DNA from: a virus
Virus record (IMG/VR): IMGVR_UViG_3300033075_001734
Location: 1-51,691 of that record
Length of the DNA: 51,691 nt
Direction: 5' to 3' (one strand)
The position numbers were made by a program, and so were the translations under genes. Below the pieces are notes generated by a model. That model did no database searches. It saw nothing but the letters and a program-made list of their open reading frames with translations, and was not told the DNA's origin. Below are positions 3,037 through 44,802 of this stretch, one piece after another. The stretch's first letter is position 1, and the number at the start of each line of letters is the position of its first letter.

Positions 3037-3102
3037 TTAACGGATCAATTAATTCACAATGATAGCAATAAACAGAATACTTAGACACAAGGAAAATAGA
3101 CG

Positions 3103-6163: not shown

Positions 6164-6958
6164 TTGCTAAAAGTCATCACACCATCTAAACCGGGTGTTT
6201 ATGAAATAAAAAACATAAACACCGGAATGATTTACGTTGGAGCTTCAAAAGATCCACGTAATAGATGGAAAACGCATATCGCAGCGAGCAAAAGAGCAGA
6301 CGATCTAAACAACTATTTTTACAGTTCATTACGAAAACATGGTAGTGATTCTTTTTCTTTCACGATTGTAAAAGAATTTGATACTTCGTTTGAAGCTTTT
6401 GAATATGAAAATATCAGAATGATCGAATTGCGAGAACTAGGATGCACACTTTACAATAAACATCCGGGTGGTAACGGTCATTTTGTAATGTCTAGCAAAA
6501 TGAAATTAGAACGCTCTGAACGTCTTTTAGGTACAAAATTAAGTAAAGAAATAAAAGAGAAAATTTCTAATTCGTTAAAAGGAAGAACTTTAACTGAGGA
6601 ACATAAAGAAAATATTGGAAAAGGTCTTAGTGTTCCTGAAGTAATTTTGAAACGAAGATTAACAAGAAAAAACGTTAAACTAACTAAAAACACAAAAGAG
6701 AAAATTTCAAATTCACTTAAACTTGCATATAAAAACAAAACAAAAATTGCTAAGCACTCTGGTGAGAGTAATCCACGATCAGTTTTAAATGAAAATGATG
6801 TTAAAGAAATCAGAAATTTGTGGAATTCTTTTATTCAAACTTCATCACTAAAACGTGGCGAAAAAGGAAAATATTATACTGAACTAGCAATTAAGTACAA
6901 TGTTTCACCTTCGAATATTTGTCGTTTAATTACAGGTCGTACTTGGAAAAACGTTTAA
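6164..6958 (+). mobile_element. Free-standing GIY-YIG homing endonuclease with NUMOD3-like repeats and C-terminal HTH
   Basis: It has GVYEIKN...GMIYVGAS (the GIY...YIG motif) with a conserved R (RNRWKTH), a Glu (FEYENIRMIEL) and an Asn. It carries two 'EKISNSLKG' NUMOD3-like repeats and a C-terminal IENR/HTH-like region. It is inserted between the sheath and tube genes. Confidence 0.7.
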
Positions 6959-9435: not shown

Positions 9436-10536
9436 ATGACTTCTTCTTTAAATCTTCTGCGTGAATATCTCAGATTGATTTTGATTTCTGAAGGTAAGGT
9501 CGAAGACCTCGCCAAGCAGAATCCCAATATTCCTGTCATAGATCTCGCTTCTTCAGATTCAACTCCGACAAAAAAGCTTCTTCCGTGGATGGTGAAACAA
9601 GTTTCCAAAGGTGCTGACGTGGAACACGTCAGATCTGTTGCTTCTCGTTTTGCAAAAGATGGTTCTAGACTCAAGAACAAAGACATAAACTCTTATTCTG
9701 AAATTGATGAATTGGAATCTGTGCTTGATGCACTCGGTGCATCAAAGCGTTCAGAAACAATTCAGGCAAAATCAGGTGCAGTTAAGATTTATGAAGACGA
9801 CGCCTGTACTGTTTTAAGAATCGACACAAAAGAAGCTGCACAACAATATGGAAAAGGCACCAAGTGGTGCATCACAATGGAGAAGCAACAACACTATGAA
9901 ATGTATAAAGCTTCAAACGTGTTGTTCTATTACGTTCTGAGAAAAGAACCACTGAGTGATGATCTTGATAAAGTTGCTCTTGCAGTGTCGAGAGATAAAG
10001 ATAACTTTATTCAAAAAATTCAGGCTTTTGATCAAGCTGATAAAGAAATGACGCCTGATGTTGTGAGTGCACAAGCACTCACAACAGTTAAATCCGATGT
10101 CAAGTCTCAACCAAAAGCCTTTCTTGCTAGAATAAAATCAGGTGATAAATACAGTGATGAGGAATTATTTAGCTATTGGGAAAACCTGGGAACAGAACAA
10201 AACAAAATTGCATTTCTGTGTTCTACAGATCTAATCAAAAAAGAAAAACTTCAGAAACTTCTTTCAGTTGAAAATGATGAAGAAATGAAAGAGATTCTTT
10301 CAGATATGATTTCTGGGAAAGCAGAGATTAAATCTGATTATGTTATATGGCGTAATTCAGCAGGACAACTTCATCGAGACAATGATCAGCCTGCAATAAT
10401 TTATTCTGACGGATCAAAAAAATGGTATCAAAATGGAAAACTGAACAGAGACAATGATCAACCTGCAATAATTTTTGCTGACGGATCAAAAAAATGGTAT
10501 CAAAATGGTCTTGAATATGTTCCTAAGAAAAAGTGA
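9436..10536 (+). CDS. Multicopy family protein, copy A (366 aa): N-terminal helical domain, conserved WCIT core, two C-terminal HRDNDQPA/WY-NG repeats
   Basis: It is one of five paralogs (copies A-E; A-D all lie within 9436..24622, E is at 43099..44802). The N-terminus is MTSSLNLLREYLRLILISEGKVEDLAKQNP. The core is SGAVKIYEDDACTVLRIDTKEAAQQYGKGTKWCITM...NVLFYYVLRKEP. The C-terminus carries the repeats QLHRDNDQPAIIYSDGSKKWYQNGKLNRDNDQPAIIFADGSKKWYQNG. Confidence 0.7.
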   Translation: MTSSLNLLREYLRLILISEGKVEDLAKQNPNIPVIDLASSDSTPTKKLLPWMVKQVSKGADVEHVRSVASRFAKDGSRLKNKDINSYSEIDELESVLDALGASKRSETIQAKSGAVKIYEDDACTVLRIDTKEAAQQYGKGTKWCITMEKQQHYEMYKASNVLFYYVLRKEPLSDDLDKVALAVSRDKDNFIQKIQAFDQADKEMTPDVVSAQALTTVKSDVKSQPKAFLARIKSGDKYSDEELFSYWENLGTEQNKIAFLCSTDLIKKEKLQKLLSVENDEEMKEILSDMISGKAEIKSDYVIWRNSAGQLHRDNDQPAIIYSDGSKKWYQNGKLNRDNDQPAIIFADGSKKWYQNGLEYVPKKK

Positions 10537-14911: not shown

Positions 14912-16090
14912 ATGACTTCTTCTTTAAATCTTCTTCAAGAATATCTCAGATTGATTTTGATTTCTGAAGGCAAGGTCGAAGACCTTGCTAAACAGAATCC
15001 CAATGTTCCTGTCATAGATCTCGCTTCTTCAGATTTAACTCCGACAAAAAAGCTTCTTCCGTGGATGGTGAAACAAGTTTCCAAAGGTGCTGACGTGGAA
15101 CACGTCAGATCTGTTGCTTCTCGTTTTGCAAAAGATGGTTCTAGACTCAAGAACAAAGACATAAACTCTTATTCTGAAATTGATGAATTGGAATCTGCGC
15201 TTGATTCTTTGGGAGCGTCAAAACGCTCTCAGGAAATTCAGGCAAAATCAGGTGCAGTTAAGATCTATGAAGACGACGCATGCGTCGTCTTAAGAATTGA
15301 CACAAAAGAAGCTGCTCAACAGTATGGAAAAGGCACCAAGTGGTGCATCACAATGGGGAGGCAACAACACTATGAAGAGTACAAAGCTTCAAACGTGTTG
15401 TTCTATTACGTTCTGAGAAAAGAACCACTGAGTGATGATCTTGACAAAGTTGCTCTTGCAGTAATGAGAGATGAAAAAAACGTTGTGAAACAAGTTCAGG
15501 CTTTTAATCAAGCTGATAAAAAAATGACACCTGAAAATGCGAGTGTGAGTGCACAAGCACTCACAGCAGTTAAATCAGATGTCAAGTCTCAACCAAAAGC
15601 CTTTCTTGCTAGAATAAAGTCGGGTGATAAATACAGTGATGAGGAATTGTTTAGCTATTGGGAAAACCTGGGAACAGAACAGAACAAACTTTCATTTCTG
15701 TGTTCTGAACAGTTAAACGAAAAAGATACGCTTCGAAAACTTCTTCAGGTTGAATCTGACAAAAAAATGAAAGAAATTCTTTCAGATATGATTTCTGGGA
15801 AAGCAGTTTCTTTTTATGATGGAATTAAATGGAAAAATAAAAACGGTCAACTACACAGAGACAATGATCAACCTGCAGTGATTTATTCTGACGGATCAAA
15901 AGTTTGGTATCAAAATGGTCAACGTCATCGAGACAATGATAAGCCTGCAATGATTTATGCTGATGGATCAAAAGAATGGTATCGAAATGATCTACTTCAT
16001 CGAGATAATGATCAACCTGCAGTGATTTATGATGATGGAACAAAAGAATGGTATCGAAATGGTCTTAAATACGTTCCTAAGAAAAAATGA
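14912..16090 (+). CDS. Multicopy family protein, copy B (392 aa), four C-terminal repeats
   Basis: It has the same N-terminal and core sequence as copy A, with four HRDNDxPA...WY.NG repeats. Its ATG is 8 nt after the tape-measure stop, within the shared 'TAATTACTTTC-ATG' junction. Confidence 0.7.
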   Translation: MTSSLNLLQEYLRLILISEGKVEDLAKQNPNVPVIDLASSDLTPTKKLLPWMVKQVSKGADVEHVRSVASRFAKDGSRLKNKDINSYSEIDELESALDSLGASKRSQEIQAKSGAVKIYEDDACVVLRIDTKEAAQQYGKGTKWCITMGRQQHYEEYKASNVLFYYVLRKEPLSDDLDKVALAVMRDEKNVVKQVQAFNQADKKMTPENASVSAQALTAVKSDVKSQPKAFLARIKSGDKYSDEELFSYWENLGTEQNKLSFLCSEQLNEKDTLRKLLQVESDKKMKEILSDMISGKAVSFYDGIKWKNKNGQLHRDNDQPAVIYSDGSKVWYQNGQRHRDNDKPAMIYADGSKEWYRNDLLHRDNDQPAVIYDDGTKEWYRNGLKYVPKKK

Positions 16091-19509: not shown

Positions 19510-20691
19510 ATGACTTCATCTTTAAATCTTCTTCAAGAATATCTCAGATTGATTTTGATTTCTGAAGGTAAGGTCGAAGACCTCGCCAAGCAGAATCCCA
19601 ATATTCCTGTCATAGATCTCGCTTCTTCAGATTCAACTCCGACAAAAAAGCTTCTTCCGTGGATGGTGAAACAAGTTTCCAAAGGTGCTGACGTGGAACA
19701 CGTCAGATCTGTTGCTTCTCGTTTTGCAAAAGATGGTTCTAGACTCAAGAACAAAGACATAAACTCTTATTCTGAAATTGATGAATTGGAATCTGCGCTT
19801 GATTCTTTGGGAGCGTCAAAACGCTCTCAGGAAATTCAGGCAAAATCGGGTGCAGTTAAGATCTATGAAGACGACGCATGCGTCGTCTTAAGAATCGATA
19901 CAAAAGAAGCTGCACAACAGTATGGAAAAGGCACCAAGTGGTGCATCACAATGAGCGAAGAACAACACTATGAAGAGTACAAAGCTTCAAACGTATTATT
20001 CTATTACGTTCTGAGAAAAGAACCTTTAGGAAATAATCTTGACAAAGTTGCTCTTGTTATGATGAGAGATGAAAATAATTCTGTTCAACAGATTCAAGCT
20101 TTTGATCAGGCTGATGAAGAAATGACACCCAAAAAAGCAGGGGTAAGTGCACAAGCACTCACAGCAGTTAAATCAGATGTCAAGTTTCAACCAAAAGCCT
20201 TTCTCACTAAAATAAAGTCGGGTGATAAATACAGTGATGAGGAACTCATCACATATTGGTCACAACTAGGAACTGAAAAAGATAAACTTGTATTTCTGTG
20301 TTCTGAACAGTTAAACGAAAAAGATACGCTTCGAAAACTTCTTCAGGTTGAATCTGAAAAAAAAATGAAAGAAATTCTTTCAGATTTGATTTCTGGGAAA
20401 GCAGTTTCTTTTTATGATGGAATTAAATGGAAAAATTCAGCAGAACAACTTCACAGAGACGATGATCAACCTGCAGCGATTTATGTTGACGGATCAAAAG
20501 AATGGTATCGAAATGGTCAACGTCACAGAGATAATGATCAACCTGCAGTGATTTATGTTGATGGAACAAAATATTGGTATCGAAATGATCTACTTCATCG
20601 AGATAATGATCAACCTGCAATAATTTATAGCGACGGAATAAAACGTTGGTATAAAAATGGTCTTGAATACGTTCCTAAGGGAAATAAATGA
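19510..20691 (+). CDS. Multicopy family protein, copy C (393 aa), four C-terminal repeats
   Basis: It shares a 259-nt tract that is 100% identical with copy A (19537..19795 vs 9463..9721). Its 3' half is near-identical to copy B. Confidence 0.7.
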   Translation: MTSSLNLLQEYLRLILISEGKVEDLAKQNPNIPVIDLASSDSTPTKKLLPWMVKQVSKGADVEHVRSVASRFAKDGSRLKNKDINSYSEIDELESALDSLGASKRSQEIQAKSGAVKIYEDDACVVLRIDTKEAAQQYGKGTKWCITMSEEQHYEEYKASNVLFYYVLRKEPLGNNLDKVALVMMRDENNSVQQIQAFDQADEEMTPKKAGVSAQALTAVKSDVKFQPKAFLTKIKSGDKYSDEELITYWSQLGTEKDKLVFLCSEQLNEKDTLRKLLQVESEKKMKEILSDLISGKAVSFYDGIKWKNSAEQLHRDDDQPAAIYVDGSKEWYRNGQRHRDNDQPAVIYVDGTKYWYRNDLLHRDNDQPAIIYSDGIKRWYKNGLEYVPKGNK

Positions 20692-23567
20692 CTTTCGAAA
20701 AATTAGACGACATATTCAGAATGATGACACCCACAGATTTGATGGGTGCTCAGAAACTTTCTTTAGGAACAGACAAGAGCATTGATACGAGCCTTGCAAA
20801 AGATTTGATAAACATCATATACGGTACTTCAGGTGCAAGAACAGTTGATCAAATTAGTAAAGATTTAACAACGTTTAGTGCCAAGGCGGAAGAAGCATCA
20901 CAACTTGAACAATTTAAGCGTATTATTCAGTTCTATAAAACAGGCGCGTCTTGTACGGCTTTTGGTTCAGCACCTTTTATTGCAATGGGTTCATCTGGAA
21001 AAGATCCTGTTAATAATGTTACGTTTGAACAAATCATCGGAACTGATATTAAATTAAATGATGTTAAACCATCAAAATCAATGGGAATAATGTTGTGTAA
21101 TTCTGGGTTTATGAGCCCAGCAATAAGAAATTCAGAAAAAGTTGAAAAATTTTTAAATTTCATGCCAACTATAGTCGCTTCTCGAATGATTCCATTACTT
21201 GATGTTGAATTTGCTTTTAAACGTGGTGTTCCTGAAGCAAATATATCGCAACCTCATATGTGGTCACCTGGGCTTTTAAAGTTCTTATTAGGTGGTGATA
21301 ATTCAGTTCTCAAAGATTCAGAATCACCTACATCTATATTGATTAATGCAAATGAAAAACATGGTCTCGACGGTGCGCAATCTGTATCAGGAATGGAAAT
21401 GTTTACTTCACCTCAAACATTGATTAATACAGATCCAACGTCAAACGTAGGGCGCTATGTTGACGTAATTGATCCCATGCGACCATTGATGACACTTGAA
21501 AGTTTTTCAGTGAATATCACACCTAACGTTGGTTTGTATTCATATAAGAAAGCAACTGTCGTTTTCAAATTACATGACAGATCAAGATTGTCTGAAATTG
21601 CAGATCTTATAAGACCACAGGTGTATCAAGATAAAGATTCTGCACCTACTGTTTGGATTACTTATGGTTGGAGACACCCGGTCGAGCCTGGAAATCCTTA
21701 CGCAGATTTTATCAATGAAAATATGCTTGTTAGAGATGCGTATGGAATCATAAACACTCAATTCGAATTTGATCAAATGGGTCAAGTAAACATAACATTA
21801 TCATTATGGACTAAAGGGATCCCAGAAATGAGAACGTCAAATGTTAATGGTGATGGTTCTTTGCAAATAATCAAAGATATACAAGACATTGCAAAAAAAG
21901 TTGCTCGATATAAAAATGCACTAGGAATCTCTTCGAATGGAGGCACAAATCGTGAGATTCGTGGATTTACATTACTTGAATCAGCAGAAAGTGGGACCTA
22001 TCCTTCTGAAATTTCGTCAGACGATATTAAAAAATCACTTAGTGATATCAAAACAAGCTTAAACAGTAAAGATCTAAAACTTGATCAAACAGCAGTTAAA
22101 GGTCTTATTGAACAACTTGAAAAGTTGTATAACCCAAAATATAAAGGTTACGTTAAATTTAAAGAAACACTTGAAACGCAATCAACAATAAAAACAAATG
22201 AAAAATTTCAACAGGTTATTAGCGGTGCAGATCCGTTTTTACCTTCAATTAAAAAGGACGAAAAAAGATTCATTGAATCAAAATCAGTTTCTCACCCATT
22301 AACAAGCCTAATTGAATCTATTAACGAATATTATGGTGAATCTGAAATAAAAGATTTGAAAAATCCAACGGGAACTAAAGTTAAAGGTTTTCAAAAGAAA
22401 GCAGTTTCACTTGGTAAACTAATTTCTGTGTTTATGGCAGAAGCCCTAAAATCACTTGACGGAATTGACGAATTACAATTGTATTTTTATCAGTTTAATA
22501 GTCATGCCGGAAGTTGTGCAGCAGTAAACATCGCTGAATTTCCAATCGACATGCCAGTGTTCTTAGATCAATATCGTGATCACATACAACGAAAAGGAAA
22601 TGAACGAGTTACACTTGAAGAATTTTTAAGACTTGTTATTGATTCGCAGTTACATGATTCAAGAGCAATAGGATATGGTCACAGAAAATATTTCGCTCCA
22701 TACGATCCTTCAAATAAATCACCCGCGCTAAAAAAGGGAATTCCACCTGAAAAATATGAACTTGCAAAAGGTCAGTTTATTATGCCCGCAATTGAGTTGT
22801 ATATTGAAACTGTTCAAGCATCAACATCATTATCAGAACATGATAAATTAAATCAAATTCAAACTTCTTCTGGAAATAATCGTGCAGAACAATACACAAA
22901 AATTATGAGACTTCATATTTTTGACAAGACAAATAATCCTTACAAAATAGCAGATTTATTACTGCAAGGTGACGATGAAATGTCTTTTGTTGAAGCAGAT
23001 AGTGAATATGTTAAACAACAATCGATGTTAAATAGTCTCACACCTAATGAAATCTATAATAGTCATACTGATGGCGACAAATTATTAAAAAACAAAGAAA
23101 GCAAAACCGTTAGTAATAAAGACGTTAAAACGTTTGTGTCAAAAATGGTTCCGACAATTATTCATGGAATGAACGCTTCAAGTGTTTCAAGCGCAAACTT
23201 AGCATCAAAACAAGATCCATTGTTAGCGACAGCGCAAATGCAGGCTTTGGCAAAAGGTCACGGTAAACCTCAGACTTTGTCGCCTAACGGCGCTGACGTA
23301 GGAGGTTTACCTTTAAGAATTATTCCTGCATCATTGACATTAGATTCATTAGGTTGCCCAATGTTATCTTATGGTCAAGTGTTCTTTATTGACTTTAATA
23401 CTGGAACGACTGTTGATAACATGTATCTTATGACTGGGTTGACGCACAATATTTCACCAGGGAAGTTTAGTTCACAAATGACGTTAACTTTTCATGACGC
23501 GTATGGAAAATTCTTCAGTGCACCAAAAATTACAGATTACATTAAGTCTCTTAAAGGAACAGAATGA
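20688..23567 (+). CDS. Large putative baseplate/tail structural protein (959 aa)
   Basis: The call rests on position (after the gpX-like gene) and size. It has an ATGA overlap with copy C upstream and with copy D downstream. No motif was recognised. Confidence 0.25.
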   Translation: MTFEKLDDIFRMMTPTDLMGAQKLSLGTDKSIDTSLAKDLINIIYGTSGARTVDQISKDLTTFSAKAEEASQLEQFKRIIQFYKTGASCTAFGSAPFIAMGSSGKDPVNNVTFEQIIGTDIKLNDVKPSKSMGIMLCNSGFMSPAIRNSEKVEKFLNFMPTIVASRMIPLLDVEFAFKRGVPEANISQPHMWSPGLLKFLLGGDNSVLKDSESPTSILINANEKHGLDGAQSVSGMEMFTSPQTLINTDPTSNVGRYVDVIDPMRPLMTLESFSVNITPNVGLYSYKKATVVFKLHDRSRLSEIADLIRPQVYQDKDSAPTVWITYGWRHPVEPGNPYADFINENMLVRDAYGIINTQFEFDQMGQVNITLSLWTKGIPEMRTSNVNGDGSLQIIKDIQDIAKKVARYKNALGISSNGGTNREIRGFTLLESAESGTYPSEISSDDIKKSLSDIKTSLNSKDLKLDQTAVKGLIEQLEKLYNPKYKGYVKFKETLETQSTIKTNEKFQQVISGADPFLPSIKKDEKRFIESKSVSHPLTSLIESINEYYGESEIKDLKNPTGTKVKGFQKKAVSLGKLISVFMAEALKSLDGIDELQLYFYQFNSHAGSCAAVNIAEFPIDMPVFLDQYRDHIQRKGNERVTLEEFLRLVIDSQLHDSRAIGYGHRKYFAPYDPSNKSPALKKGIPPEKYELAKGQFIMPAIELYIETVQASTSLSEHDKLNQIQTSSGNNRAEQYTKIMRLHIFDKTNNPYKIADLLLQGDDEMSFVEADSEYVKQQSMLNSLTPNEIYNSHTDGDKLLKNKESKTVSNKDVKTFVSKMVPTIIHGMNASSVSSANLASKQDPLLATAQMQALAKGHGKPQTLSPNGADVGGLPLRIIPASLTLDSLGCPMLSYGQVFFIDFNTGTTVDNMYLMTGLTHNISPGKFSSQMTLTFHDAYGKFFSAPKITDYIKSLKGTE

Positions 23568-24622
23568 ATCTTCTGCGTGAATATCTCAGATTGATTTTGA
23601 TCTCTGAAGGAAGAGTTGAAGATCTTGCTAAGAGGAATCCAAATGTAGACGTTCAAAGCCTTGCCGCAGTTGATTCCACACCTACAAAAAAGCTTCTTCA
23701 ATGGATGATTAAACAAGTGTCAAAAGGTGCTGACGTGGAACACGTCAAATCTGTAACTTCTCGTTTTATTAAAGATGGTTCTAGGCTTCCCAATAAAGAC
23801 ATATATTTTTATTCTGAAATTGATGATTTAGAAGTTGAATTAGACATACTTGGTGCATCAAAGCGTTCTGAAACAATACAAGTTAAGACAGGCGCCGTTA
23901 AGATTTTTGAAGATAAAACATGCATTGTATTGAGAATTGATACAAAGAAAGCTGCACAATTGTACGGAAGAAATACAACCTGGTGCATAACACAAGAAAA
24001 TACGGGAGATTACGAAGGTTACAAGTCTGAAAATGCGTTATTTTATTTCGTAATAAGGAAAAAGCAATTAAAAGACAATTTTGATAAAGTTGCTGTTCAA
24101 GTTGTTAGAGATGATTATAATCAAATTGATGATTTAAAATGTTACAATCAACTAGATGATCAAAATGATCCTATTTCTTCCAAATTATCTTCAGAAGTTA
24201 TTGAAAGTATTAAATTTGACGCAGAATCACAACCCTATTGTTTAAGTGATATGATTTTATCGTGGAATAATTGTAAAACTTTTTTTGCCAAAATGGTATT
24301 TTTGATTGATCGTAATTTTAGTGTAGAAGATCTCTTGTTAGAACTTTATTTAATTGAAGAAGACGAAGACGTAAAAGAAATTCTGCAAGATCTAATTGAT
24401 AAAAAAGCGTACATTGACGAGGAGTTAGATTCAATCGTGTGGATAAAAAACGGTCGATTGAATCGTGTTGGTGATAAACCTGCCTTGATCAGTGCATCTG
24501 GGAAATTTGAATATTGGCGTTCTGGAAAATTGCACAGAGATAACGACAAACCAGCTGTTATAGATGGAAGTTCAAAACAATGGTTTAAGCATGGAGTTCA
24601 ATATGAACCTAAAGGTTTGTAA
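23564..24622 (+). CDS. Multicopy family protein, copy D (352 aa), divergent, two C-terminal repeats
   Basis: It has MNLLREYLRLILISEGRVEDLAKRNPN at the N-terminus, a conserved core (GAVKIFEDKTCIVLRIDTKKAAQLYGRNTTWCIT...LFYFVIRKK) and the C-terminal repeats LNRVGDKPALISASGKFEYWRSGKLHRDNDKPAVIDGSSKQWFKHG. Confidence 0.65.
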   Translation: MNLLREYLRLILISEGRVEDLAKRNPNVDVQSLAAVDSTPTKKLLQWMIKQVSKGADVEHVKSVTSRFIKDGSRLPNKDIYFYSEIDDLEVELDILGASKRSETIQVKTGAVKIFEDKTCIVLRIDTKKAAQLYGRNTTWCITQENTGDYEGYKSENALFYFVIRKKQLKDNFDKVAVQVVRDDYNQIDDLKCYNQLDDQNDPISSKLSSEVIESIKFDAESQPYCLSDMILSWNNCKTFFAKMVFLIDRNFSVEDLLLELYLIEEDEDVKEILQDLIDKKAYIDEELDSIVWIKNGRLNRVGDKPALISASGKFEYWRSGKLHRDNDKPAVIDGSSKQWFKHGVQYEPKGL

Positions 24623-24650
24623 TTTTCTGTAAATTTGATTAAGTTAATTT

Positions 24651-25862
24651 ATGTGCCTCTGCATTGATTCATCTGTAATCGGTACAGAAAAACATTTGTT
24701 GTGTAATTCAGGCATTTATAGTTGGATTAAATCTGTTCCAAACGATTCATGGCATTTGAGTGGAAAAATTAAAAATGAATCTCAACGATGTTTTGATACG
24801 TTATTGAGATTAAACGATTTAAGTTTTTCATTACTTCCTGATGAAAAGTATTTGAAAATGATGTCTTCATTAGAATCTGACTCAATTCAGTTTCCTTGGA
24901 AGAACATAATGTCTTCTTCTGCCCATCGTGATTTTGTCAAAAAAATCGCAAATTTAGCTGCAGAAGCCTATAAAAAAGTATCAATGAATTATTATGAAGG
25001 CACGTGGGTGCCCTGTAACAAGCCTTTGAACTCCTTAAATAGGGCAAAAATTGATAAGACAAGACTTAAGAATACGTTAACAGATAATGCTCAAAATCCT
25101 CATGTGATCAAATCATTTCAACCTACTGTGAATAGTGATTATGCTGATACTGTTGTGTACAACAGGTTTGGAACTTTAACTGGTCGTTTGACAGTGACGA
25201 AAGGACCACAGATTCTAACGTTAAAACGTAACTGTCGTGATATTATTGTTTCCGAAAGTGAAAACAGTACAATAATGTCAATTGATTTTTCTGCGCTTGA
25301 ACCACGCATATTGTTATATGAATCTGGCAAAGATTGTCTAGACGAAGATCTATATCGTTCAATTTCTTCTGAAATTAATCGCCCACGAAATGATGTAAAA
25401 CTTGTTATTATAAGTGAATTGTATGGAAGTTCTAAGCGTTTGCTGGGAGACAAATTAAAATTAGACGGTGACGAATTAGACAACTTTGTTAAGTACGTTA
25501 AACAATATTTCAATACGAAATCATTACTAGAACGTTTAAAAAAACAAGTATACGAACTGGGTTATATCGAAAATCATTATGGAAGAAGAATAAAGATTGA
25601 TGACCCAACTGAACATATTTTGATCAATTATTATACACAGTCAACTGGTGTTGATGTATCCTTATTAGGATTTGGGAGAATAATTGATATTCTTAAAGAA
25701 CAATCTGACAAAATAAAACCTTTGTATCTTTTGCATGATGCACTAATTCTTGATGTCCCAAATAGTCAGATTGATAATCTTAAGCAAATAAAATCAATAT
25801 TTGTTCCAGGATATACACAGGCTTTTCCCCTCAAAATTGAACCTTTGTACACAAATGATTAA
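24651..25862 (+). CDS. Family-A DNA polymerase, polymerase (palm/fingers) domain only (403 aa)
   Basis: Pol I motifs are present. There is a TGRL motif (LTGRLTV). Motif A is SIDFSALEPRILLY (D and E conserved). Motif B is RPRNDVKLVIISELYG (R, K and Y conserved). Motif C is LLHDALILDVP (HD conserved, E to A). No 3'-5' exonuclease motifs or upstream N-terminal domain are present. Confidence 0.6.
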   Translation: MCLCIDSSVIGTEKHLLCNSGIYSWIKSVPNDSWHLSGKIKNESQRCFDTLLRLNDLSFSLLPDEKYLKMMSSLESDSIQFPWKNIMSSSAHRDFVKKIANLAAEAYKKVSMNYYEGTWVPCNKPLNSLNRAKIDKTRLKNTLTDNAQNPHVIKSFQPTVNSDYADTVVYNRFGTLTGRLTVTKGPQILTLKRNCRDIIVSESENSTIMSIDFSALEPRILLYESGKDCLDEDLYRSISSEINRPRNDVKLVIISELYGSSKRLLGDKLKLDGDELDNFVKYVKQYFNTKSLLERLKKQVYELGYIENHYGRRIKIDDPTEHILINYYTQSTGVDVSLLGFGRIIDILKEQSDKIKPLYLLHDALILDVPNSQIDNLKQIKSIFVPGYTQAFPLKIEPLYTND

Positions 25863-25878
25863 AGGAATATGTTGTTAT

Positions 25879-26469
25879 ATGTCATTAACAGAAGAAGAAC
25901 TTGAGAAAAATTGGAATAAAACACTTGAATTGATGTCAAAGTTAGGTGAGAGATCTGAATTTGCAACGTCAATGGTTGAAACATTAGGCGAAAGGCTTTA
26001 TTTATGTCCTGCATCAGGAAAACCAGAGTTTCATTGTGCATTCCCAGGTGGTTTATTAGATCATTCACTACGTGTTCTTGGAAACGCACTAAAACTTAAT
26101 GCTGCATTTGAATGGAATTTGCCGAAAGATTCATTGATTATTGCATCAATGTTTCATGACCTTGGAAAATGTGGTGATATTGATAATGATTATTACATTC
26201 CACAAACTGATGAATGGCGTCGAAATAAATTGGGAGAGATTTATACGTACAATAAAGATATGCAATATATGACGATTCCCGATCGAAGTATATTTCTATG
26301 TCAGCATTTTGGTCTTAAATTGACACTTAATGAAATGTTAGCTATTCGTTTAAATGATGGATTTGTTGTTGAAGAAAATCGTCAATATTGTCTGAAAGAA
26401 CCATTACTTGCGCATGTTATTATGACTGCTGATTATATCAGTACGATGCAAGAAAAAGAAAAATTTTAA
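25879..26469 (+). CDS. HD-domain phosphohydrolase
   Basis: It has the HD signature H...HD...D (GLLDHSLRV ... MFHDLGK ... ITADYIS). The AAAGGAA RBS lies before the ATG at 25879. The tracked ORF from 25801 is probably an N-terminal over-extension. Confidence 0.55.
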   Translation: MSLTEEELEKNWNKTLELMSKLGERSEFATSMVETLGERLYLCPASGKPEFHCAFPGGLLDHSLRVLGNALKLNAAFEWNLPKDSLIIASMFHDLGKCGDIDNDYYIPQTDEWRRNKLGEIYTYNKDMQYMTIPDRSIFLCQHFGLKLTLNEMLAIRLNDGFVVEENRQYCLKEPLLAHVIMTADYISTMQEKEKF

Positions 26470-26520: not shown

Positions 26521-26751
26521 ATGATTAAAACATTGATTACACAGTATGTGAAACTGTTTCTTGAAGAAACAAGATTAGCTCGTGTACCTCAACAATTAAT
26601 CTCACCAAACAAAGATAATGAAGAAACTGATGAAGTTGAAGAAGCTGAAAATGTTAATGAATTTTCTGGCGTTGGTGCTGTAGCAGGTTATTCAGCTCCT
26701 TTGGGTATGAATCCTGACAAATTGGGAAGAAAAAAGAATAAGACAAAATAA
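26521..26751 (+). CDS. Small acidic hypothetical protein (76 aa)
   Basis: ORF only, with a Glu/Asp-rich middle. Confidence 0.25.
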   Translation: MIKTLITQYVKLFLEETRLARVPQQLISPNKDNEETDEVEEAENVNEFSGVGAVAGYSAPLGMNPDKLGRKKNKTK

Positions 26752-26872: not shown

Positions 26873-27718
26873 ATGGCTATAGATTTAGAAGCAATTCGTA
26901 AGCGCGTTGCGCAACTCTCGGGAAATTATAAGAATTCATCAATTCAGCTCTGGAAACCAGGCGTGGGTGAATATAAAATAAGAGGTCTAGCATGGAAAAA
27001 TGCGCCTGAAGGTTCTCCAATCATTGAAAAATGGTTTTATTATCTTGGTAACGGTCCTGGGATTTTAACACCAAATCAGTTTGGAAAACCTGATCCAATT
27101 CAAGATCTTATTCGTAAACTTTATTCTTCGGGAAAACCTGAAGATAAGACTCTTGCAAAGAAACTTCTTCCAAAAATGCGAGCGTATTTGCCAATAATTG
27201 TTCGAGGCGAAGAAGCAAAAGGCGTCCAAGTTTGGTCATTTGGAAAGATAATTTATCAGAAATTGTTAGGTTATTATCTTGATTCTGATGTAGGGGATAT
27301 TCTTGATCCAGAAACTGGATTTGATCTTAAAGTGGTGATTACCCAACAACCAGGAAAACAATTTCAAGATACACAAGTTGAGGCAGCAAGAAAAACATCG
27401 GTGTTGACCTCAGACGCAGAACTTTTGAAAAAGTGGTCAGAGTCAGTTCCCAATCTTGATGACATGTATAAACTTAAGTCAACTCAGGAAATTGAATCAC
27501 TTCTTAATCAATGGTTAACAGGTGATGCTTTATCTACAGATGATGGCCTTTCAAAGTCACCCTCAAAAGAAAAAGATGAACTTGATAAATTGGTTGATGA
27601 AATTAAACCTGCAAAAAAGTCAAAAAAATCAACAGCTTCTGAAGTTGACGTTGATGCACCTGTAGTTGAAAATAAGTCAATTGATGATGCATTTGATGAA
27701 TTAATGCAAGACGATTGA
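26873..27718 (+). CDS. Hypothetical protein, possible ssDNA-binding protein (281 aa)
   Basis: It has a strong RBS (aaaggaaataggaaatatt-ATG). It has a K-rich linker and an acidic C-terminal tail (IDDAFDELMQDD) resembling phage SSB tails. It sits in the replication/recombination block. Confidence 0.3.
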   Translation: MAIDLEAIRKRVAQLSGNYKNSSIQLWKPGVGEYKIRGLAWKNAPEGSPIIEKWFYYLGNGPGILTPNQFGKPDPIQDLIRKLYSSGKPEDKTLAKKLLPKMRAYLPIIVRGEEAKGVQVWSFGKIIYQKLLGYYLDSDVGDILDPETGFDLKVVITQQPGKQFQDTQVEAARKTSVLTSDAELLKKWSESVPNLDDMYKLKSTQEIESLLNQWLTGDALSTDDGLSKSPSKEKDELDKLVDEIKPAKKSKKSTASEVDVDAPVVENKSIDDAFDELMQDD

Positions 27719-27824: not shown

Positions 27825-28781
27825 ATGCTAAAGTCATACATAACGTTAAAACGAGTTTTACTTGAATGTGATGTTTGTAAAAAAGACATTGAGAGATATC
27901 TTTGTTCAGTGCGCATTGAAAGTATACATTTTTGTTCAAGGGAGTGTAGAAAGTTATCGTTAAAAACGGGTGGTTTGTTGGCGAATAAAATTGCTAGAAC
28001 AAATTTAGAGCGTCATGGCGTGACAAATGTTTTTTCGTCCTTAGAAATAAGAGATAAAATTAAAGAAACTTGGATAAAATTACGTGGCGTTGATAATCCT
28101 AAAAAAGATCAATCAATAATTGATGCATCAAAATTAACATCTATAGAACGATATGGTGTTGATAATCCTGCAAAATCAGATTTAATTAAAGAAAAAACGA
28201 ATCTCACGGTTAAGAAACGTACAGCTGAACAACAAAACGCAATAAATTCTAAACGTTCTAAAACAAACTTAGAACGATATGGTGTTGAATACGTGATGCA
28301 ATCTGATGAAATAAAGGCCAAATTTAATTGGTCGTCTGCGTATCAAAAATCTTTGATAACAAAGAAATTACGCGGAACTAAAAAATTAACTTCACAAGTT
28401 GAAGAATTTGTGGGTAAAGTTTTATATGATTTATATGGAAAAGAAAACGTTCTAACACAAGTTAGAACAACTAATCGATGGGTTTTTGATTTTCAAATTT
28501 TAAATCTAAATCTATATGTTCAAGTAGATGGTGTTTATTGGCACGGATTAAATCGGCCGTTAAACACCATCAAACAATTGAAATCAACTAAAGATATATC
28601 AATACTAAAAAATATTGACAAAGATACTAAACAAAATCAATGGGCTATTGACAATAATGAGATTATTGTAAGATTTACAGATAAAGAGATAATAGAATGG
28701 CAAAAAAAGAAAAGTTACAAGAACGAAATAAACAGCAGGATTCAACAGAAATTGAGCTCGACGCGCTCACAAAGGCCTTAA
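27825..28781 (+). mobile_element. Homing-endonuclease-like nuclease: N-terminal C4 zinc ribbon, four ~37-aa 'ERYGV-NP' repeats, C-terminal Vsr/DUF559-like PD-(D/E)xK motif
   Basis: The zinc ribbon is CDVCKK...C..R..HFCSRECRK. The repeats are NLERHGVTNVFS / SIERYGVDNPAKS / NLERYGVEYVMQS. The C-terminus has FDFQIL...YVQVDGVYWHGL (the xDxxIExDGxxWH-type motif). Its 3' end overlaps the first ~28 codons of the recombinase gene. Confidence 0.45.
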
Positions 28782-29923
28782 TTTCCGATATAAATAAAGA
28801 ATTCGGAATTCGTTGTGCATATAATCTTGCTGAAACTGAAGCACCAACAACGGTTAAGCGTTGGCTTGATACTGGTTCAATTCAGTTAAATTATGCTATT
28901 CGTAATGCAGCAGGAGGTGGTTATCCAGAAGGAAGAATTATTGAAATTGCTGGTCCACCTTCGATTGGTAAGTCACACTTAGCTTATCATGCAGCAGCAA
29001 ATGCACAGTCATTAGGGGGTTTAGTTATTTATATCGATACAGAGAATGCAACCCCCGTTCAAAAACTTCAACAGATGGGAATTAATATTAAACGAGGGTT
29101 CGTTTTTCTTGATCTTCATGCAACAGAACACGTATTCAAAGCAATCGAAGATACAGTTCTTAAGGCGAAATCATTAACAAAAGACATACCAGTCGTTGTT
29201 ATCTGGGATTCAGTAGCAGCATCATCACCCCTTGCGGAACTTCAAGGTGAATATGAAAATAATACAATGGGTCTTCAAGCTCGCGTTATCAGCAAAGGAA
29301 TGCGTAAACTAACTGGCATCATCGGGCAAAATAATGTAACGCTATTATGTCTTAATCAATTACGTGATGCTATTGGTGTAATGCATGGTGATCCACAAAC
29401 AACGCCAGGTGGAAAAGCTATTCCATTTCATTCAAGTATTCGTATTCGTTTGAGTTCAGGCAGTCAAGTTAAAGACAAAAAAGGAAACGTTATTGGTATT
29501 CATGTAATAATGACTATCAAGAAAAACAAAGTTGCTCCTCCATTTAGAAAATATGAATTTGATATTATCTTTGGAAAAGGAATCGTTGAACATGAATATA
29601 TCTTTGATGAGGTTCGTGCTTATTGTGTTAACAATGAAGTATTAACTGATTATACACACCTTAAAAATGGTATATGTAAAGCAAAAATCAACGTATCAGG
29701 AACAAGTGCCTGGAAAGAACTTGTTGTTTCTGATGAATCAACGGGTGAAATAATTCTTGAAAAGAAGTTTTACAAGGCAGATTTTGGTGATCTAATGAAA
29801 GATCCTTTGTATAAACCTTTTCTTGACAAGGTAATTGAAGCGGCATATACGATTGTGAGTTCAACTGATTCAGAACATAATATTGAAGGTGAAGTTGTAG
29901 AAGACGAGGTTATAGATGAGTGA
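28697..29923 (+). CDS. RecA/UvsX-family recombinase (408 aa)
   Basis: DTGSIQLNYAIR..GGYPEGRIIEIAGPPSIGKSHLA carries the Walker A motif, followed by LVIYIDTENA. The segment LLCLNQLRDAIGVMHGDPQTTPGGKAIPFHSSIRIRL aligns with RecA NQIR.[26 protein letters not shown]. Confidence 0.8.
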   Translation: MAKKEKLQERNKQQDSTEIELDALTKALISDINKEFGIRCAYNLAETEAPTTVKRWLDTGSIQLNYAIRNAAGGGYPEGRIIEIAGPPSIGKSHLAYHAAANAQSLGGLVIYIDTENATPVQKLQQMGINIKRGFVFLDLHATEHVFKAIEDTVLKAKSLTKDIPVVVIWDSVAASSPLAELQGEYENNTMGLQARVISKGMRKLTGIIGQNNVTLLCLNQLRDAIGVMHGDPQTTPGGKAIPFHSSIRIRLSSGSQVKDKKGNVIGIHVIMTIKKNKVAPPFRKYEFDIIFGKGIVEHEYIFDEVRAYCVNNEVLTDYTHLKNGICKAKINVSGTSAWKELVVSDESTGEIILEKKFYKADFGDLMKDPLYKPFLDKVIEAAYTIVSSTDSEHNIEGEVVEDEVIDE

Positions 29924-31039: not shown

Positions 31040-31993
31040 ATGAATAATGTTCAACAAAATCCTATTCTCATTGTTGATGGGTTAAATCTTTTTGTACGTA
31101 GTTATAGTGCATATCCTGCGATGTCAACACACGGATATCAAATGGGCGGTTGTGTTGGGTTTCTTAAAACTTTAAAACGTATTACGTTTGAAATGCAACC
31201 TTCTGCGATTTATATTTGTTGGGAGTCAGGAGGCTCACAAAAAAGACGAAAACTTTATTCTGAATATAAACTCAACAGACGTCCAGACAAGGTAAATCGT
31301 TTTTATGAAGATGATATTCCCGAATCTGACGACAATCAAAAACATCAATTGATCGCATTATTGGCAATGATAAAATATGCTCCTGCGTGTCAAATATATG
31401 TTCAAGATTGCGAAGGTGATGATGTTATAGCGTATCTTTGTAGAGGACGTTTTAGGATGATTGATAAAATTATTGCTTCATCTGACAAAGACATGTATCA
31501 ACTTGTTGATGAAAAAACGAGAATATATAGTTTTCATAAAAAGACATTCGTAAAAGAAGAAGATGTTTTGAGTGAATTTCGTGTAACAGCACAGAATTTT
31601 GCATTGGCAAAAACATTGTGTGGTGATCCTTCAGACAACATTCCTGGAATTAAAGGATTGGGATTTAAGACAATTGCAAAATTGTTTCCATTTTTGGGGT
31701 CAGAAGAAGTTGTTCTTTTACAAGACGTTTTGAATTATGCCGAAGCTCACAAAGAAGATAATCACATGTATAAGCGGATTCTTGATAATAAAGATGTCGT
31801 TCAAAGGAATTGGAAATTAGTTTATCTTGATGGGGGAATGTTAACAGCATTGCAATCGTCACAAGTTGATAATATCATTAGTACATTTGCACCTAAAATT
31901 GATAAGGTCGGTTTAGTAAAGCAATTGGTTAAAGAAGGTCTTGGCAATTTTGATGTTGAAGACTTTTTTTATTCTTTTAATGGTTTAAAATGA
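31040..31993 (+). CDS. 5'-3' exonuclease / flap endonuclease (RNase H-like, T4 rnh / Pol I 5' exo family)
   Basis: It has ILIVDGLNLFVRSY ... YKLNRR and a helix-3turn-helix (LCGDPSDNIPGIKGLGFKTIAKL). Confidence 0.8.
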   Translation: MNNVQQNPILIVDGLNLFVRSYSAYPAMSTHGYQMGGCVGFLKTLKRITFEMQPSAIYICWESGGSQKRRKLYSEYKLNRRPDKVNRFYEDDIPESDDNQKHQLIALLAMIKYAPACQIYVQDCEGDDVIAYLCRGRFRMIDKIIASSDKDMYQLVDEKTRIYSFHKKTFVKEEDVLSEFRVTAQNFALAKTLCGDPSDNIPGIKGLGFKTIAKLFPFLGSEEVVLLQDVLNYAEAHKEDNHMYKRILDNKDVVQRNWKLVYLDGGMLTALQSSQVDNIISTFAPKIDKVGLVKQLVKEGLGNFDVEDFFYSFNGLK

Positions 31994-33402
31994 CGGAATT
32001 ACAGAATACAACGTTTGGACAGTTTGGGCGAAATTTTCAAGAAAAAATTATGCAAGCATTATTGTCAGATAGACAATTTGCAGAACAAATGCTTGAAGTA
32101 TTAGATGTTGAATATTTTGATCTGAAATATTTAATATTTCTTTCAGATCGTTATTTTGCGTACGCGAAGAAATATAAAGTTTTCCCTACGTTACAATTAC
32201 TTGTTACAATTGTTCGCGATGAATTAAAATCAGGAACTGAATCATCATTACGTGATCAAATTATTGATTACTTACAAAGGATGAAATCAGATCCAGATAC
32301 TGGTGATTTGATTTATGTAAAAGAAAAAGCGCTTGAATTTTGTAGAAAACAGGCTTTAAAACATGCGCTTGAAAATGCAGTTGATCAAATGGCTGCGAAT
32401 AAATATGAACAGATTGTTGAGGAGATCAAAAAAGCTGTTTGTGTTGGAACTACACCTGCTTTAGGTCATGATTTTTTTGAAGATTATGAAAGTAGATTTA
32501 CGCTTTTACAACGTAATTGTGTTACAACAGGGTTACCTGAACTTGATAAAAAAGAAATTCTTAACGGTGGTTTGGGTGCTGGTGAACTTGGTTGCATTGT
32601 CGCCTCGACAGGCGTTGGCAAAAGCCATATGCTTACATTTTTGGGCGCTTCGGCACTAAAAGTGGGTGTTAATGTTTTACATTATACGTTTGAACTTTCT
32701 GAATCTGCGGTTGGTAGAAGATATGATTCGAATCTTTGTGAAATTGATTCAAATGACATCATTGAAAATAAAGAAAAAGTATTAGAAAAATACAAATCAA
32801 CATCATTGGGAAAATTGATGATCAAGGAATTTCCAACTAACACGGCGAGTATTTATACGATAAGAAGTCACCTTGAAAGATTAGACTTAAAAGGGTTTCG
32901 TCCCGGATTGATAATCATTGACTATGCTGATATCATGCGTTCAACGCGTCAGTATGATTCATTAAGACATGAATTAAAACTTGTATATGAAGAATTACGT
33001 GGTTTAGCAAGTGAAAAACAATTAGGAATCTGGACAGCGAGTCAGTCTAATAAAGAAGGTTCATCAGCAGAAATTGTTGATTTAAGTAATATGTCTGAAG
33101 CGTACGGAAAAGCAATGGTTGCAGACGTTGTTATTAGTATTTCTAGACGCGCTCACGAAAAATCATCAGGAATAGGAAGATTGTTTGTTGCAAAAAACAG
33201 AGCTGGTCGTGATGGTCTTGTTTATCCTTTGAAAATTGATACTGCAAGAAGTAATTTTGAAATTACTGGTGGACCAGGTGGATTTGACGAGGCAAAGAAT
33301 TCTGATGATAATTCAATGAAAAAAGCGCTTAGAGCGAAGTGGGAAGAATTACGCAATGATCCTGTTTTTCAAAAGAAAAAAGATGATGATGAAGTTTTAT
33401 AA
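31990..33402 (+). CDS. DnaB-family replicative DNA helicase (470 aa)
   Basis: It has Walker A (GELGCIVASTGVGKSHML), LIIIDYADIM (Walker B), and a RecA-like C-terminal domain. It has an ATGA overlap with the FEN gene. Confidence 0.7.
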   Translation: MTELQNTTFGQFGRNFQEKIMQALLSDRQFAEQMLEVLDVEYFDLKYLIFLSDRYFAYAKKYKVFPTLQLLVTIVRDELKSGTESSLRDQIIDYLQRMKSDPDTGDLIYVKEKALEFCRKQALKHALENAVDQMAANKYEQIVEEIKKAVCVGTTPALGHDFFEDYESRFTLLQRNCVTTGLPELDKKEILNGGLGAGELGCIVASTGVGKSHMLTFLGASALKVGVNVLHYTFELSESAVGRRYDSNLCEIDSNDIIENKEKVLEKYKSTSLGKLMIKEFPTNTASIYTIRSHLERLDLKGFRPGLIIIDYADIMRSTRQYDSLRHELKLVYEELRGLASEKQLGIWTASQSNKEGSSAEIVDLSNMSEAYGKAMVADVVISISRRAHEKSSGIGRLFVAKNRAGRDGLVYPLKIDTARSNFEITGGPGGFDEAKNSDDNSMKKALRAKWEELRNDPVFQKKKDDDEVL

Positions 33403-43098: not shown

Positions 43099-44802
43099 AT
43101 GCCTAATTCTTTAAATTTTCTTCGTGAATACCTTGAACTTATTTTGATTTGTGAAGATAAAGTAAGAGATCTTGCGAAAAAAAATCCCAGAATAAATGTT
43201 TACGTTCTCGCTGACTATGATGTTTCGCCCACAAAAAAACTCTTACCTTGGATGGTGAAACAGGCTTCTAAGGGCGCAAATGAAAATGAGATTAAGAGTA
43301 TTGCTTCTCAATTTTTTGAATATGAAGCAATGTTACCAAATAAAGACATAAATTCATATTCAACACTTGAAGATTTACAGTCTGCGTTTGATAAACTTGG
43401 ACCTTCAAAACGTTCACATTTAATTCAAATTAAGTCAGGTGCTGTTAAGATTTATGAAGACAAAAAAGATCTTGTTTTAAGAATTGACACAAAAGAAGCT
43501 GCCCAACAGTATGGAAAAGGCACCAAATGGTGCATCACAATGGAAGATGAACCACACTATGAAGAATATAAAGAAAAAAATGTTTTATTCTATTATGTTC
43601 TGAAAAAAAAAGAATATGGAAAACCTGAACTTCAAAAGGTTGCTCTTGCAGTGATTAGAAATCATAATAATTCAATACAAGAAATTCAAGCATTTGATAA
43701 TGTCGACGCGCAGATGACACCTGAAGATGCATATGTTAGTGAACAGGTTTTAGAAGCAGTTAAATCAGATGCAAAAAAACAACCTCAATCTGTGTTAGCA
43801 AAATTGAAAGCTGGAAATTTTACAGATGATGATATTAAACAAATTTGGAATTCACTGTCATCTGAACAACAGAAATATAAATTTCTAATTGCTATGGAAA
43901 ATAGAAGTCACAATTTTAATGACATATTATACACAATCCTAAAGTTGGAAACAGATCCAGATATGAAAGAAATTGTTCATGATTTAGTATATGACAAAGC
44001 TAGTGTCGAGGATGGCGAGAAAATCTGTTGGTATTCACCTCAATATGAATTGAATCGTGAAGATGATAAGCCTGCGGTGATTTATGACACAGGTACGAAA
44101 GTTTGGTATAAAAACGGATTAAAACATCGAGATAATGATAAACCCGCAGTAGAATATCATGATGGAAGAAGAGCATATTGGAAAAATGGTGTTCAATATG
44201 AATTAAAACAAGAAAATTATATAAGAACAACGTTAAAAGGTCTTAAGCGCGTATTACGTGAATATGCAAAAATTGAAAAAAACAAAGACGTATACATGAA
44301 TTCTTCTGATCCAATTGCAAAAGTAATTGAACCTGAAATTTATGACATGGTTACAAAATCTTATGCTGCCGCTGGGGGGAATGCAACAATTCATTCACCT
44401 TCTGACGTATCATCAGAATATCATAATTGGATTGTCGCTGACATTGATGATGATCCTGATATTGATGTTTTTATTGGTGCAAATGAACGCGACGGAAAAA
44501 TGAAAATTGGCGCATCTGCAACGGATGGTTCTTTGCAAGCAAAAGATTATTCAATGCAACTTAGAAAACGATTACTTTCTAACGGTTATTGGGCCGAAGT
44601 ATCAGGTGCCGTGGCACATATTGTTATGAATAAACTTGGAATTAAACCAATTGAAGATGAGAAAAAAGTTCGTTCACTTTTAAATAAAGATATCGTGTGG
44701 CATGGAAAACATCCAGAAGGTAAATTTCCTGGTACGAATGGATGGTATACTAGAAACATTGGGGGAACTGAACACATTAAAATTATTGTTGGCGACGTTT
44801 AA
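43099..44802 (+). CDS. Multicopy family protein, copy E (567 aa), divergent, with extra ~200-aa C-terminal domain
   Basis: It has MPNSLNFLREYLELILICEDKVRDLAKKNP at the N-terminus and the core SGAVKIYEDKKDLVLRIDTKEAAQQYGKGTKWCITM...VLFYYVLKKK. The repeats are NREDDKPAVIYDTGTKVWYKNGLKHRDNDKPAVEYHDGRRAYWKNG, followed by a unique C-terminal extension. Confidence 0.65.
   Translation: MPNSLNFLREYLELILICEDKVRDLAKKNPRINVYVLADYDVSPTKKLLPWMVKQASKGANENEIKSIASQFFEYEAMLPNKDINSYSTLEDLQSAFDKLGPSKRSHLIQIKSGAVKIYEDKKDLVLRIDTKEAAQQYGKGTKWCITMEDEPHYEEYKEKNVLFYYVLKKKEYGKPELQKVALAVIRNHNNSIQEIQAFDNVDAQMTPEDAYVSEQVLEAVKSDAKKQPQSVLAKLKAGNFTDDDIKQIWNSLSSEQQKYKFLIAMENRSHNFNDILYTILKLETDPDMKEIVHDLVYDKASVEDGEKICWYSPQYELNREDDKPAVIYDTGTKVWYKNGLKHRDNDKPAVEYHDGRRAYWKNGVQYELKQENYIRTTLKGLKRVLREYAKIEKNKDVYMNSSDPIAKVIEPEIYDMVTKSYAAAGGNATIHSPSDVSSEYHNWIVADIDDDPDIDVFIGANERDGKMKIGASATDGSLQAKDYSMQLRKRLLSNGYWAEVSGAVAHIVMNKLGIKPIEDEKKVRSLLNKDIVWHGKHPEGKFPGTNGWYTRNIGGTEHIKIIVGDV

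Follow-up and report, generated by a model that had tools for sequence, protein, structure and literature searches.

The region at positions 24651-26469 of IMG/VR virus record IMGVR_UViG_3300033075_001734 raises the question of whether a family-A DNA polymerase gene without a 3'-5' exonuclease domain is broken or complete, and of what such a polymerase does beside a gene for an HD-domain protein. A sequence-only reading of the whole stretch of 51,691 nucleotides (nt), hereafter the window, had described an open reading frame (ORF) of 403 amino acids (aa), here called mini-PolA, and had offered two accounts: a split or disrupted polymerase, or a minimal, proofreading-deficient PolA. The second account was supported and has been refined. 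The explanation held to be probable, with moderate confidence, is that mini-PolA is not a broken gene but an intact, accessory, gap-filling Pol I-like enzyme that exists beside a DnaE polymerase; that it belongs to a large, previously undescribed clade of approximately 400-aa enzymes in which the DEDD proofreading domain was lost and the polymerase domain kept; and that members of the clade stand constantly at the head of a conserved module for replication and recombination in a lineage of uncultured aquatic myoviruses. The gene and its parts are as follows, with motifs confirmed in the translation:

24645..24647, + strand: in-frame TAA, two codons 5' of the mini-PolA ATG (translation LS(stop)FMCL)
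24651..25862, + strand: mini-PolA, family-A DNA polymerase, 403 aa, ATG start; palm, fingers and reduced thumb, no DEDD 3'-5' exonuclease
24651..25154, + strand: N-terminal 168 residues; small beta-sheet (2-36), then helices, from the secondary structure of the model
25179..25187, + strand: TGR motif, T177 G178 R179
25284..25307, + strand: motif A, DFSALEPR, with catalytic D212 and E217, from the Klenow alignment
25386..25427, + strand: motif B, RNDVKLVIISELYG, with R246, K250, I254 (position B3), Y258 and G259
25734..25754, + strand: motif C, HDALILD, with catalytic D363, A364 instead of the usual Glu, and D368

The match to Pfam DNA_pol_A (PF00476) scored 70.6 bits, against a gathering cut-off of 34.3 (E = 1.6e-19), and aligned residues 169-380 with model positions 110-352 of 381; a profile of the mini-PolA family matched Klenow, Bst and Taq (E = 1e-10 to 1e-11). 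Profile alignment to Klenow placed D363 at D882, A364 at E883 and E217 at E710, the steric-gate position, which points to a DNA-dependent DNA polymerase as the predicted activity. The AlphaFold2 model, built from a 35-sequence alignment, had a predicted local distance difference test (pLDDT) score of 92.4 and a predicted template-modelling (pTM) score of 0.90. It showed the right-hand fold of Pol I, with palm, fingers and thumb, and 347-370 of 403 residues superposed on PolA structures, while the thumb appears to be short in the model. A BFVD fold search returned no close viral structure (TM score <= 0.63). Since the TAA at 24645-24647 is in frame, the ORF cannot extend upstream; an in-frame upstream extension was what the sequence-only reading had named as a refutation. 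A scan for promoters and terminators between 19 and 28 kb of the window found none above shuffled controls.

Relatives of mini-PolA were collected in two ways. A word-indexed protein search found 503 homologues, and the best 120 of these were 390-481 aa long and 42-100% identical to the query, covering 96-100% of it, the first 168 residues included. When 1.84 billion representatives were searched exhaustively with a profile (E <= 1e-30), 555 clusters at 50% identity were obtained; the 150 clusters listed matched the profile end to end at approximately 400 aa, save for some shorter partial sequences, and none exceeded 430 aa. In an alignment of 121 sequences the median length was 404 aa (range 390-481) and no sequence had an exonuclease domain. 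T177, G178, R179, D212, E217, K250, Y258, G259, Q330 and D363 were invariant (121/121), R246 and D368 were each present in 120/121, and H362 was conserved. Residue 364 was Ala in 111 sequences, Gly in 6 and Ser in 4, but never Glu, while position B3 in motif B was Ile in 110, Leu in 10 and Val in one. A tblastn search of GenBank phages with the polymerase gave only remote matches (<= 28% identity). The best of these (L124; MT835881, 'UNVERIFIED: Bacteriophage sp.') was set aside: with an ordinary 891-aa Pol I among housekeeping genes, it appears to be a contig of bacterial rather than phage origin. No paper was found on mini-PolA with an HD nuclease, or on the phage lineage, which is no proof that none exists. 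The clade shows how far a natural family-A polymerase can shrink, to about 400 residues that lack an editing domain and have a shortened thumb and a changed motif C, and across hundreds of lineages the catalytic residues are nonetheless invariant. The enzyme is complete and probably active; if active, it would be a compact scaffold for enzyme engineering and a test case for the roles of the motif C glutamate and of B3.

The description of a 403-aa ORF with TGR and motifs A, B and C (HDA) was thus borne out by the Pfam match, the translation and the 121-sequence conservation. The reported lack of a 3'-5' exonuclease domain likewise held, since neither PF01612 nor any other Pfam exonuclease model matched mini-PolA. 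However, the claim that there is no N-terminal region did not stand. Residues 1-168 are conserved (G11, W25, G38, K41, C47, D49, P82, W83 and W119 are invariant in the family), they fold confidently in the AlphaFold2 model, and they are not a DEDD exonuclease. The model has four short strands (2-36), a helix from D49, and one long and several short helices (89-154), and searches with this region from 15 members, and with a profile, gave no more than chance-level matches in Pfam or the PDB. Judging by secondary structure, residues 1-88 are probably a remnant of a DnaQ-type domain, in which D6 and D49 could take the place of the aspartates of Exo I and Exo II and the remaining DEDD residues would be missing, and residues 89-168 are probably the shortened thumb. 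The exonuclease or N-terminal fragment that the sequence-only reading proposed to search for elsewhere was not found, as there was no DnaQ-like gene in the window or in 7 kb beyond it.

The same reading had correctly placed the polymerase directly after a member of a paralogous gene family:

23564..24622, + strand: 'family copy D', a paralogous insert between baseplate gene p959 and mini-PolA, with a weak match to PHROG 17056

The copy D stop codon at 24622 lies 28 nt before the polymerase ATG. Among loci containing p959 and PolA, leaving out L013 and L066-L068, which have spacers of 0.85-1.6 kb at this point, copy D occurred only in the window and in L005, and the PolA of L005 is identical to that of the window. 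This restriction indicates that the insertion is recent and that the polymerase gene was unaltered by it. In another relative, L001, the same 403-aa PolA is found directly 3' of the baseplate gene, with no inserted paralogue. Copy D is not part of the polymerase system and truncates nothing. It is one of five paralogues in the window that share an N-terminal domain with a weak PHROG 17056 match (9436-10536, 14912-16090, 19510-20691, 23564-24622 and 43099-44802), and these are interspersed among conserved genes for the baseplate, for replication and for other functions; MORN-like repeats form the end of at least two of them (19510-20691 and 23564-24622). Because the copies flanking p959 were absent from relatives at 50% identity, the family looks recently expanded, and possibly mobile.

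The genomic setting of mini-PolA was compared across relatives. An IMG/VR scan identified 209 stretches with relatives, 80 loci were fetched, and their ORFs were searched with the window proteins by phmmer. The window itself is part of a myovirus genome, with two sheath paralogues, a tail tube gene and baseplate genes up to 23567, after which the order is PolA, HD, p76, a gp32-like single-stranded DNA-binding protein (SSB), DUF7487, RecA, FEN, DnaB, class II ribonucleotide reductase (RNR), ThyX, Tmk and others. The genes of the module that concern the argument are these:

25879..26469, + strand: HD-domain protein, 196 aa, YhaM-like nuclease domain without OB fold
26521..26751, + strand: p76, small conserved protein, flanked by HD and SSB in most relatives (phmmer synteny)
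26873..27718, + strand: gp32-like single-stranded DNA-binding protein (Pfam gp32, E = 2.2e-10; synteny)
28697..29923, + strand: RecA recombinase (Pfam RecA, E = 3.6e-62; synteny)
31040..31993, + strand: stand-alone 5'-3' exonuclease (FEN), likely partner of mini-PolA (Pfam 5_3_exonuc_N, E = 2.6e-27)
31990..33402, + strand: DnaB-type replicative helicase (Pfam DnaB_C, E = 9.2e-20; synteny)

The order p1015, p97, p959, PolA, HD, p76, gp32, RecA, FEN, DnaB, RNR was found in essentially every one of 81 loci. The HD gene was 3' of PolA on the same strand in all 81, at a spacing of 100 nt or less in 47 and of 0.2-1.8 kb in 32. No GenBank phage had a match to the baseplate protein p959. The 76-aa p76, which has an acidic stretch and a conserved EFSGVG..AGY.APLG motif, had no Pfam or PHROG match. 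The DUF7487 gene (27825-28781), whose ORF as listed overlaps the start of the RecA ORF (28697) by 85 nt, lay between SSB and RecA in few relatives and at different places in others, a pattern suggestive of a mobile element of the homing-endonuclease kind.

A second polymerase was found just beyond the window, and its presence shifts the likely role of mini-PolA from sole replicase to accessory enzyme. Contig L002 shares the last 9,198 nt of the window at 99.3% identity and runs 7.3 kb further, so that the window and L002 together cover approximately 59 kb of a genome of approximately 116 kb. The DnaE genes concerned are:

L002 13531-15609, approximately 4.3 kb past the window end: DnaE-N, 692 aa, PHP and DNA_pol3_alpha domains, DnaE model positions 4-406
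L128 10001-12097 and 14081-16198: the two halves of DnaE

The DnaE-N of L002 ends ...APDID/CVNF... (the slash marks the junction), where an intein N-fragment begins inside a catalytic motif. In a relative with 89% PolA identity, on a contig of 59,316 nt, DnaE-N (698 aa) and DnaE-C (705 aa) are 2 kb apart and the latter begins MLHSFLNSGKSVVVHN/TDVSDRDK. From these sequences, a split intein divides the phage DnaE into two genes, and its C-fragment, of 16 residues, is unusually short. The two halves are separated by five small ORFs, the junction reading PDID/C...HN/TD. In another relative the junction is uninterrupted at the PDID site and an intein is found elsewhere in the gene; intact DnaE forms of 1,170-1,210 aa also exist, and relatives had inteins at other DnaE sites, or none. 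At 15081-16821 of L001, a relative at 50% identity, dUTPase was encoded by genes of 181 aa and 98 aa with a 300-aa ORF between them; both pieces matched dUTPase in Pfam and the second also had a weak intein-splicing match. The impression given is that inteins are common in the lineage.

PolA and DnaE were recorded together on six contigs (59316, 72400, 111117, 129643, 180088 and 341493), co-occurrence being judged by identical 'longest contig' sizes, and a pattern-based DnaE scan recovered few contigs. Three IMG/VR contigs (85782, 110371 and 340433) also carried both, so that at least nine appear to do so. On the deeper-diverged shared contigs DnaE was 54-72% identical and PolA 41-49%, while in the closest relative (59316) the ranking was reversed (PolA 89%, DnaE 84%, with a DnaE query that included the intein fragment). 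DnaE-N has HNH, D, H, E, HH, C and DAH at what we take to be the nine PHP metal-ligand positions of proofreading-competent DnaE1. DnaE is likely to be the genome replicase, and its PHP domain is the probable editing domain of that enzyme.

Several observations fit a Pol I-like role for mini-PolA. FEN aligned with positions 2-248 of 889 in the NCBIfam Pol I model (E = 1.4e-39), and mini-PolA with positions 620-876 of the same model. The distance matrices of PolA and FEN covaried (partial r = 0.58, Mantel p = 0.001), though four genes lie between them. PolA was the least conserved of the replication proteins, with a mean Kimura distance of 0.95, compared with 0.44-0.57 for HD, gp32, RecA, FEN and DnaB. 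The nearest cultured relative, Flavobacterium phage vB_FspM_immuto (NC_055915), has two family-A polymerases:

L126 1-1326: immuto gp001, 441-aa polymerase-only 'DNA polymerase family A', at the head of an SSB, RecA, FEN, DnaB, RNR module
L126 37898-40231: second immuto PolA, 777 aa, exonuclease and polymerase, with a Pfam exonuclease domain

By analogy, a mini-PolA would here again accompany another polymerase; no DnaE is annotated in the approximately 118 kb of immuto genome examined. Low PolA conservation, FEN covariation and this two-polymerase pattern are all consistent with a Pol I-like enzyme, and an accessory role with FEN as partner is most likely. DnaE with its PHP domain would copy the genome, with DnaB helicase and SSB, and mini-PolA would be the phage equivalent of Pol I, performing short-patch gap filling and, in concert with the FEN encoded apart from it, nick translation, in Okazaki-fragment maturation, recombination or repair synthesis. 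Bacterial Pol I would, in effect, have been broken into a FEN gene and a polymerase gene, the middle exonuclease domain being lost. The HD protein would trim single-stranded 3' ends in these processes, and may replace the missing editing function. The phage would then have a replisome on bacterial lines, comprising DnaE with PHP, a Pol I-like polymerase, FEN, DnaB and SSB, with Pol I in separate genes.

The HD gene required two corrections to the sequence-only reading. An ORF beginning at TTG 25801 had been given, but the gene most likely starts at ATG 25879, to judge from protein P0121, a database entry to which the 196-aa product is identical end to end, and from relatives of 195-212 aa; with this start the gene does not overlap the polymerase gene. 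The label of HD phosphohydrolase was also replaced, by that of a YhaM-like nuclease. The product matched HD in Pfam (E = 1.3e-5), the sequence profile matched YhaM/Cbf1 (E = 6e-4) over a stretch starting well before the HD motif, and the model specifically resembled the YhaM nuclease domain. The H...HD...D pattern was present, and the catalytic residues H62, H93-D94, D160 and D185 were invariant in 25 sequences; the family is 60-81% identical across the lineage. All 196 residues of the model form HD-type helices, and no OB fold was found at the N-terminus. YhaM is a Mn-dependent 3'-5' exonuclease on single-stranded DNA and RNA that requires its OB domain to bind substrate (PMC12107432). Similarity to dNTPase-type HD domains and companions such as PurZ, sought as marks of a DatZ or dNTP triphosphohydrolase, were not found. 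The protein is probably a nuclease that trims 3' ends, rather than a nucleotide-pool enzyme.

A stronger proposal, that the HD nuclease is a dedicated editing subunit acting in trans for the exonuclease-less PolA, is rather doubtful. Recruitment through PolA, p76 or the gp32-like SSB would replace its own OB domain. The proposal draws on the constant co-occurrence of PolA and HD, on the logic of a polymerase without an exonuclease, and on a single locus, L026 (IMGVR_UViG_3300016474_001138, 1962-4109), where PolA, HD and p76 form one ORF of 716 aa with no stops at the junctions. This unverified single case could be genuine or an artefact of assembly, and exact-match searches of viral and metagenome collections recovered no second copy of the fusion junction. 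Against the proposal stand that missing second copy, the covariation of HD with gp32 (partial r = 0.57; weakly with RecA, 0.21) instead of with PolA (partial r = 0.08, p = 0.16), and the separation of the two genes in immuto, where the HD homologue is 77 kb from the mini-PolA. If the proposal is true, the DnaQ-like and PHP exonucleases would be joined by a third type of polymerase-associated proofreader, unrelated to either, which would explain how the PolA clade could drop its DEDD domain.

Some of these results also weigh against the wider explanation of mini-PolA as an accessory enzyme served by FEN and HD. PolA and HD showed no specific covariation, and their adjacency may be inherited synteny only; in immuto the two are far apart. 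PolA covaried with baseplate p959 as well (partial r = 0.70), which means that the PolA-FEN signal may reflect rate class or mosaicism and not function. The co-occurrence of PolA and DnaE was judged in part by identical contig sizes, a proxy for a shared contig, the absence of a DnaQ-like exonuclease or other polymerase holds for only the approximately 59 kb covered, and the sequence relation of immuto gp001 to mini-PolA is weak (hhalign probability only 22%). The usual motif C glutamate is absent from the whole family. T7 RNA polymerase, however, has HDS at the motif C position, and a motif C without Glu need not abolish catalysis. For the HD protein, the missing domain is the one that YhaM needs for substrate binding (PMC12107432).

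Four other accounts of the locus were considered. The one that survives best, although unlikely, is that mini-PolA is a low-fidelity recombination or translesion polymerase, engaged in RecA D-loop extension or lesion bypass and not in Okazaki maturation, with the HD nuclease cutting non-homologous 3' tails before extension. Its closeness to RecA and SSB (no more than 3 kb at any locus), the missing editing domain and the covariation of HD with gp32 and, weakly, RecA would suit this, and bacterial PolA groups with dead exonucleases have been proposed to be low-fidelity enzymes (PMC12926913). But PolA itself covaried with FEN, and not with RecA (partial r = 0.03) or gp32 (-0.25), and the role overlaps the Pol I-like one without excluding it. 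It is improbable that mini-PolA is the main replicase, unedited or edited by the HD nuclease, with DnaE confined to accessory or repair synthesis. Its place at the head of a module with SSB, RecA, FEN and DnaB, its invariant catalytic residues and the frequent interruption of DnaE genes by inteins speak for this account; yet unedited copying of genomes of 100-370 kb would bring a heavy mutation load, the apparently short thumb suggests low processivity, DnaE is the better conserved on deeper-diverged contigs, its PHP metal site appears to be complete when set against the nine positions given above, and the immuto mini-PolA coexists with a full exonuclease-polymerase PolA.

More improbable still is a nucleotide-pool system like DpoZ/DatZ, in which HD would break down one of the canonical dNTPs or dNMPs, with a polymerase adapted to a modified nucleotide: Z-genome phages do have HD phosphohydrolases beside PolA genes that act in this way (PMC10201439), the window contains ThyX, thymidylate kinase, a dUTPase-like gene and RNR, and the B3 Ile and HDA of motif C are unusual, but the HD protein bears the resemblances to YhaM given above. 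Scarcely credible is the split or truncated gene, whose exonuclease or N-terminal half would lie elsewhere in the genome or have given way to copy D, for although copy D ends so close to the start codon, T7-like phages with exonuclease and polymerase as two genes are known (PMC10201439) and only about half of the genome was covered, the account was in effect refuted by the uniform length of the homologues and of 555 clusters, the same N-terminus and 403-aa ORF in relatives without copy D, the conserved and confidently folded 168 residues, the lack of a DnaQ-like gene nearby, and the position of the T7-like exonuclease gene, which is directly upstream of the polymerase where here there is a baseplate module.

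Elsewhere in the window, tandem tail-sheath paralogues of approximately 1,000 aa each, with a sheath C-terminal domain, were identified at 28-3036 and 3103-6150, followed by a GIY-YIG endonuclease gene at 6164-6958. Immuto carries 7-deazaguanine (DpdA/Que) genes.

Taken as an accessory Pol I-like enzyme, mini-PolA can be set beside several known systems. Bacterial Pol I has FEN in the same chain and a DnaQ-like exonuclease domain of approximately 200 aa; here FEN is a separate gene 5 kb away, and there is no DEDD domain, but a remnant of 90 residues or so at most. Compared with Klentaq and Klenow, of 540-605 aa, mini-PolA is 403 aa with a short thumb, HDA in motif C and Ile at B3. In a 2026 survey of bacterial polymerases, the exonuclease site was inactive in about half of the Pol I orthologues, and where there was no Pol I, stand-alone FEN genes made up for its absence (PMC12926913). 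APEX 1/2, Taq and Bst Pol I resemble mini-PolA in having lost proofreading while keeping the polymerase motifs (PMC10201439, PMC12926913), but they retain a full-size inactive exonuclease domain, whereas in mini-PolA the domain itself has been reduced away. The HD protein differs from YhaM/Cbf1 of Firmicutes, a class of hexameric, Mn-dependent 3'-5' exonucleases on single-stranded DNA and RNA, in its lack of an OB fold, in sequence (15% identity), and in being phage-encoded within a replication module.

Immuto gp001 is syntenic with mini-PolA and its motif C, YDAFVFD, has the Ala and the Asp five residues on that are found in mini-PolA; the genome also encodes an HD homologue 37% identical to that of the window. 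Immuto gp001 differs in having TSR for TGR, His at the steric-gate position and Phe at B3. The 2023 reclassification of family-A polymerases (Czernecki et al.) recognised 19 clusters, and reported polymerase-only genes only in a T7-like subset, in which the exonuclease became a separate gene; B3 in cluster 5 is Tyr, and Ile at B3 is not mentioned for any of the 19 (PMC10201439). This subset shares with mini-PolA a phage family-A gene that encodes the polymerase domain alone (PMC10201439). The comparison with split phage polymerases that the sequence-only reading had recommended did not favour a common arrangement, however. The T7-like gene is a podovirus replicase of recent split, with a DnaQ-type exonuclease gene beside it and Tyr at B3. 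Next to mini-PolA no such exonuclease gene was found, the neighbours being the paralogous insert and baseplate genes upstream and HD downstream; Ile, Leu or Val stands at B3, 555 clusters share an old and uniform architecture, and there is a DnaE too.

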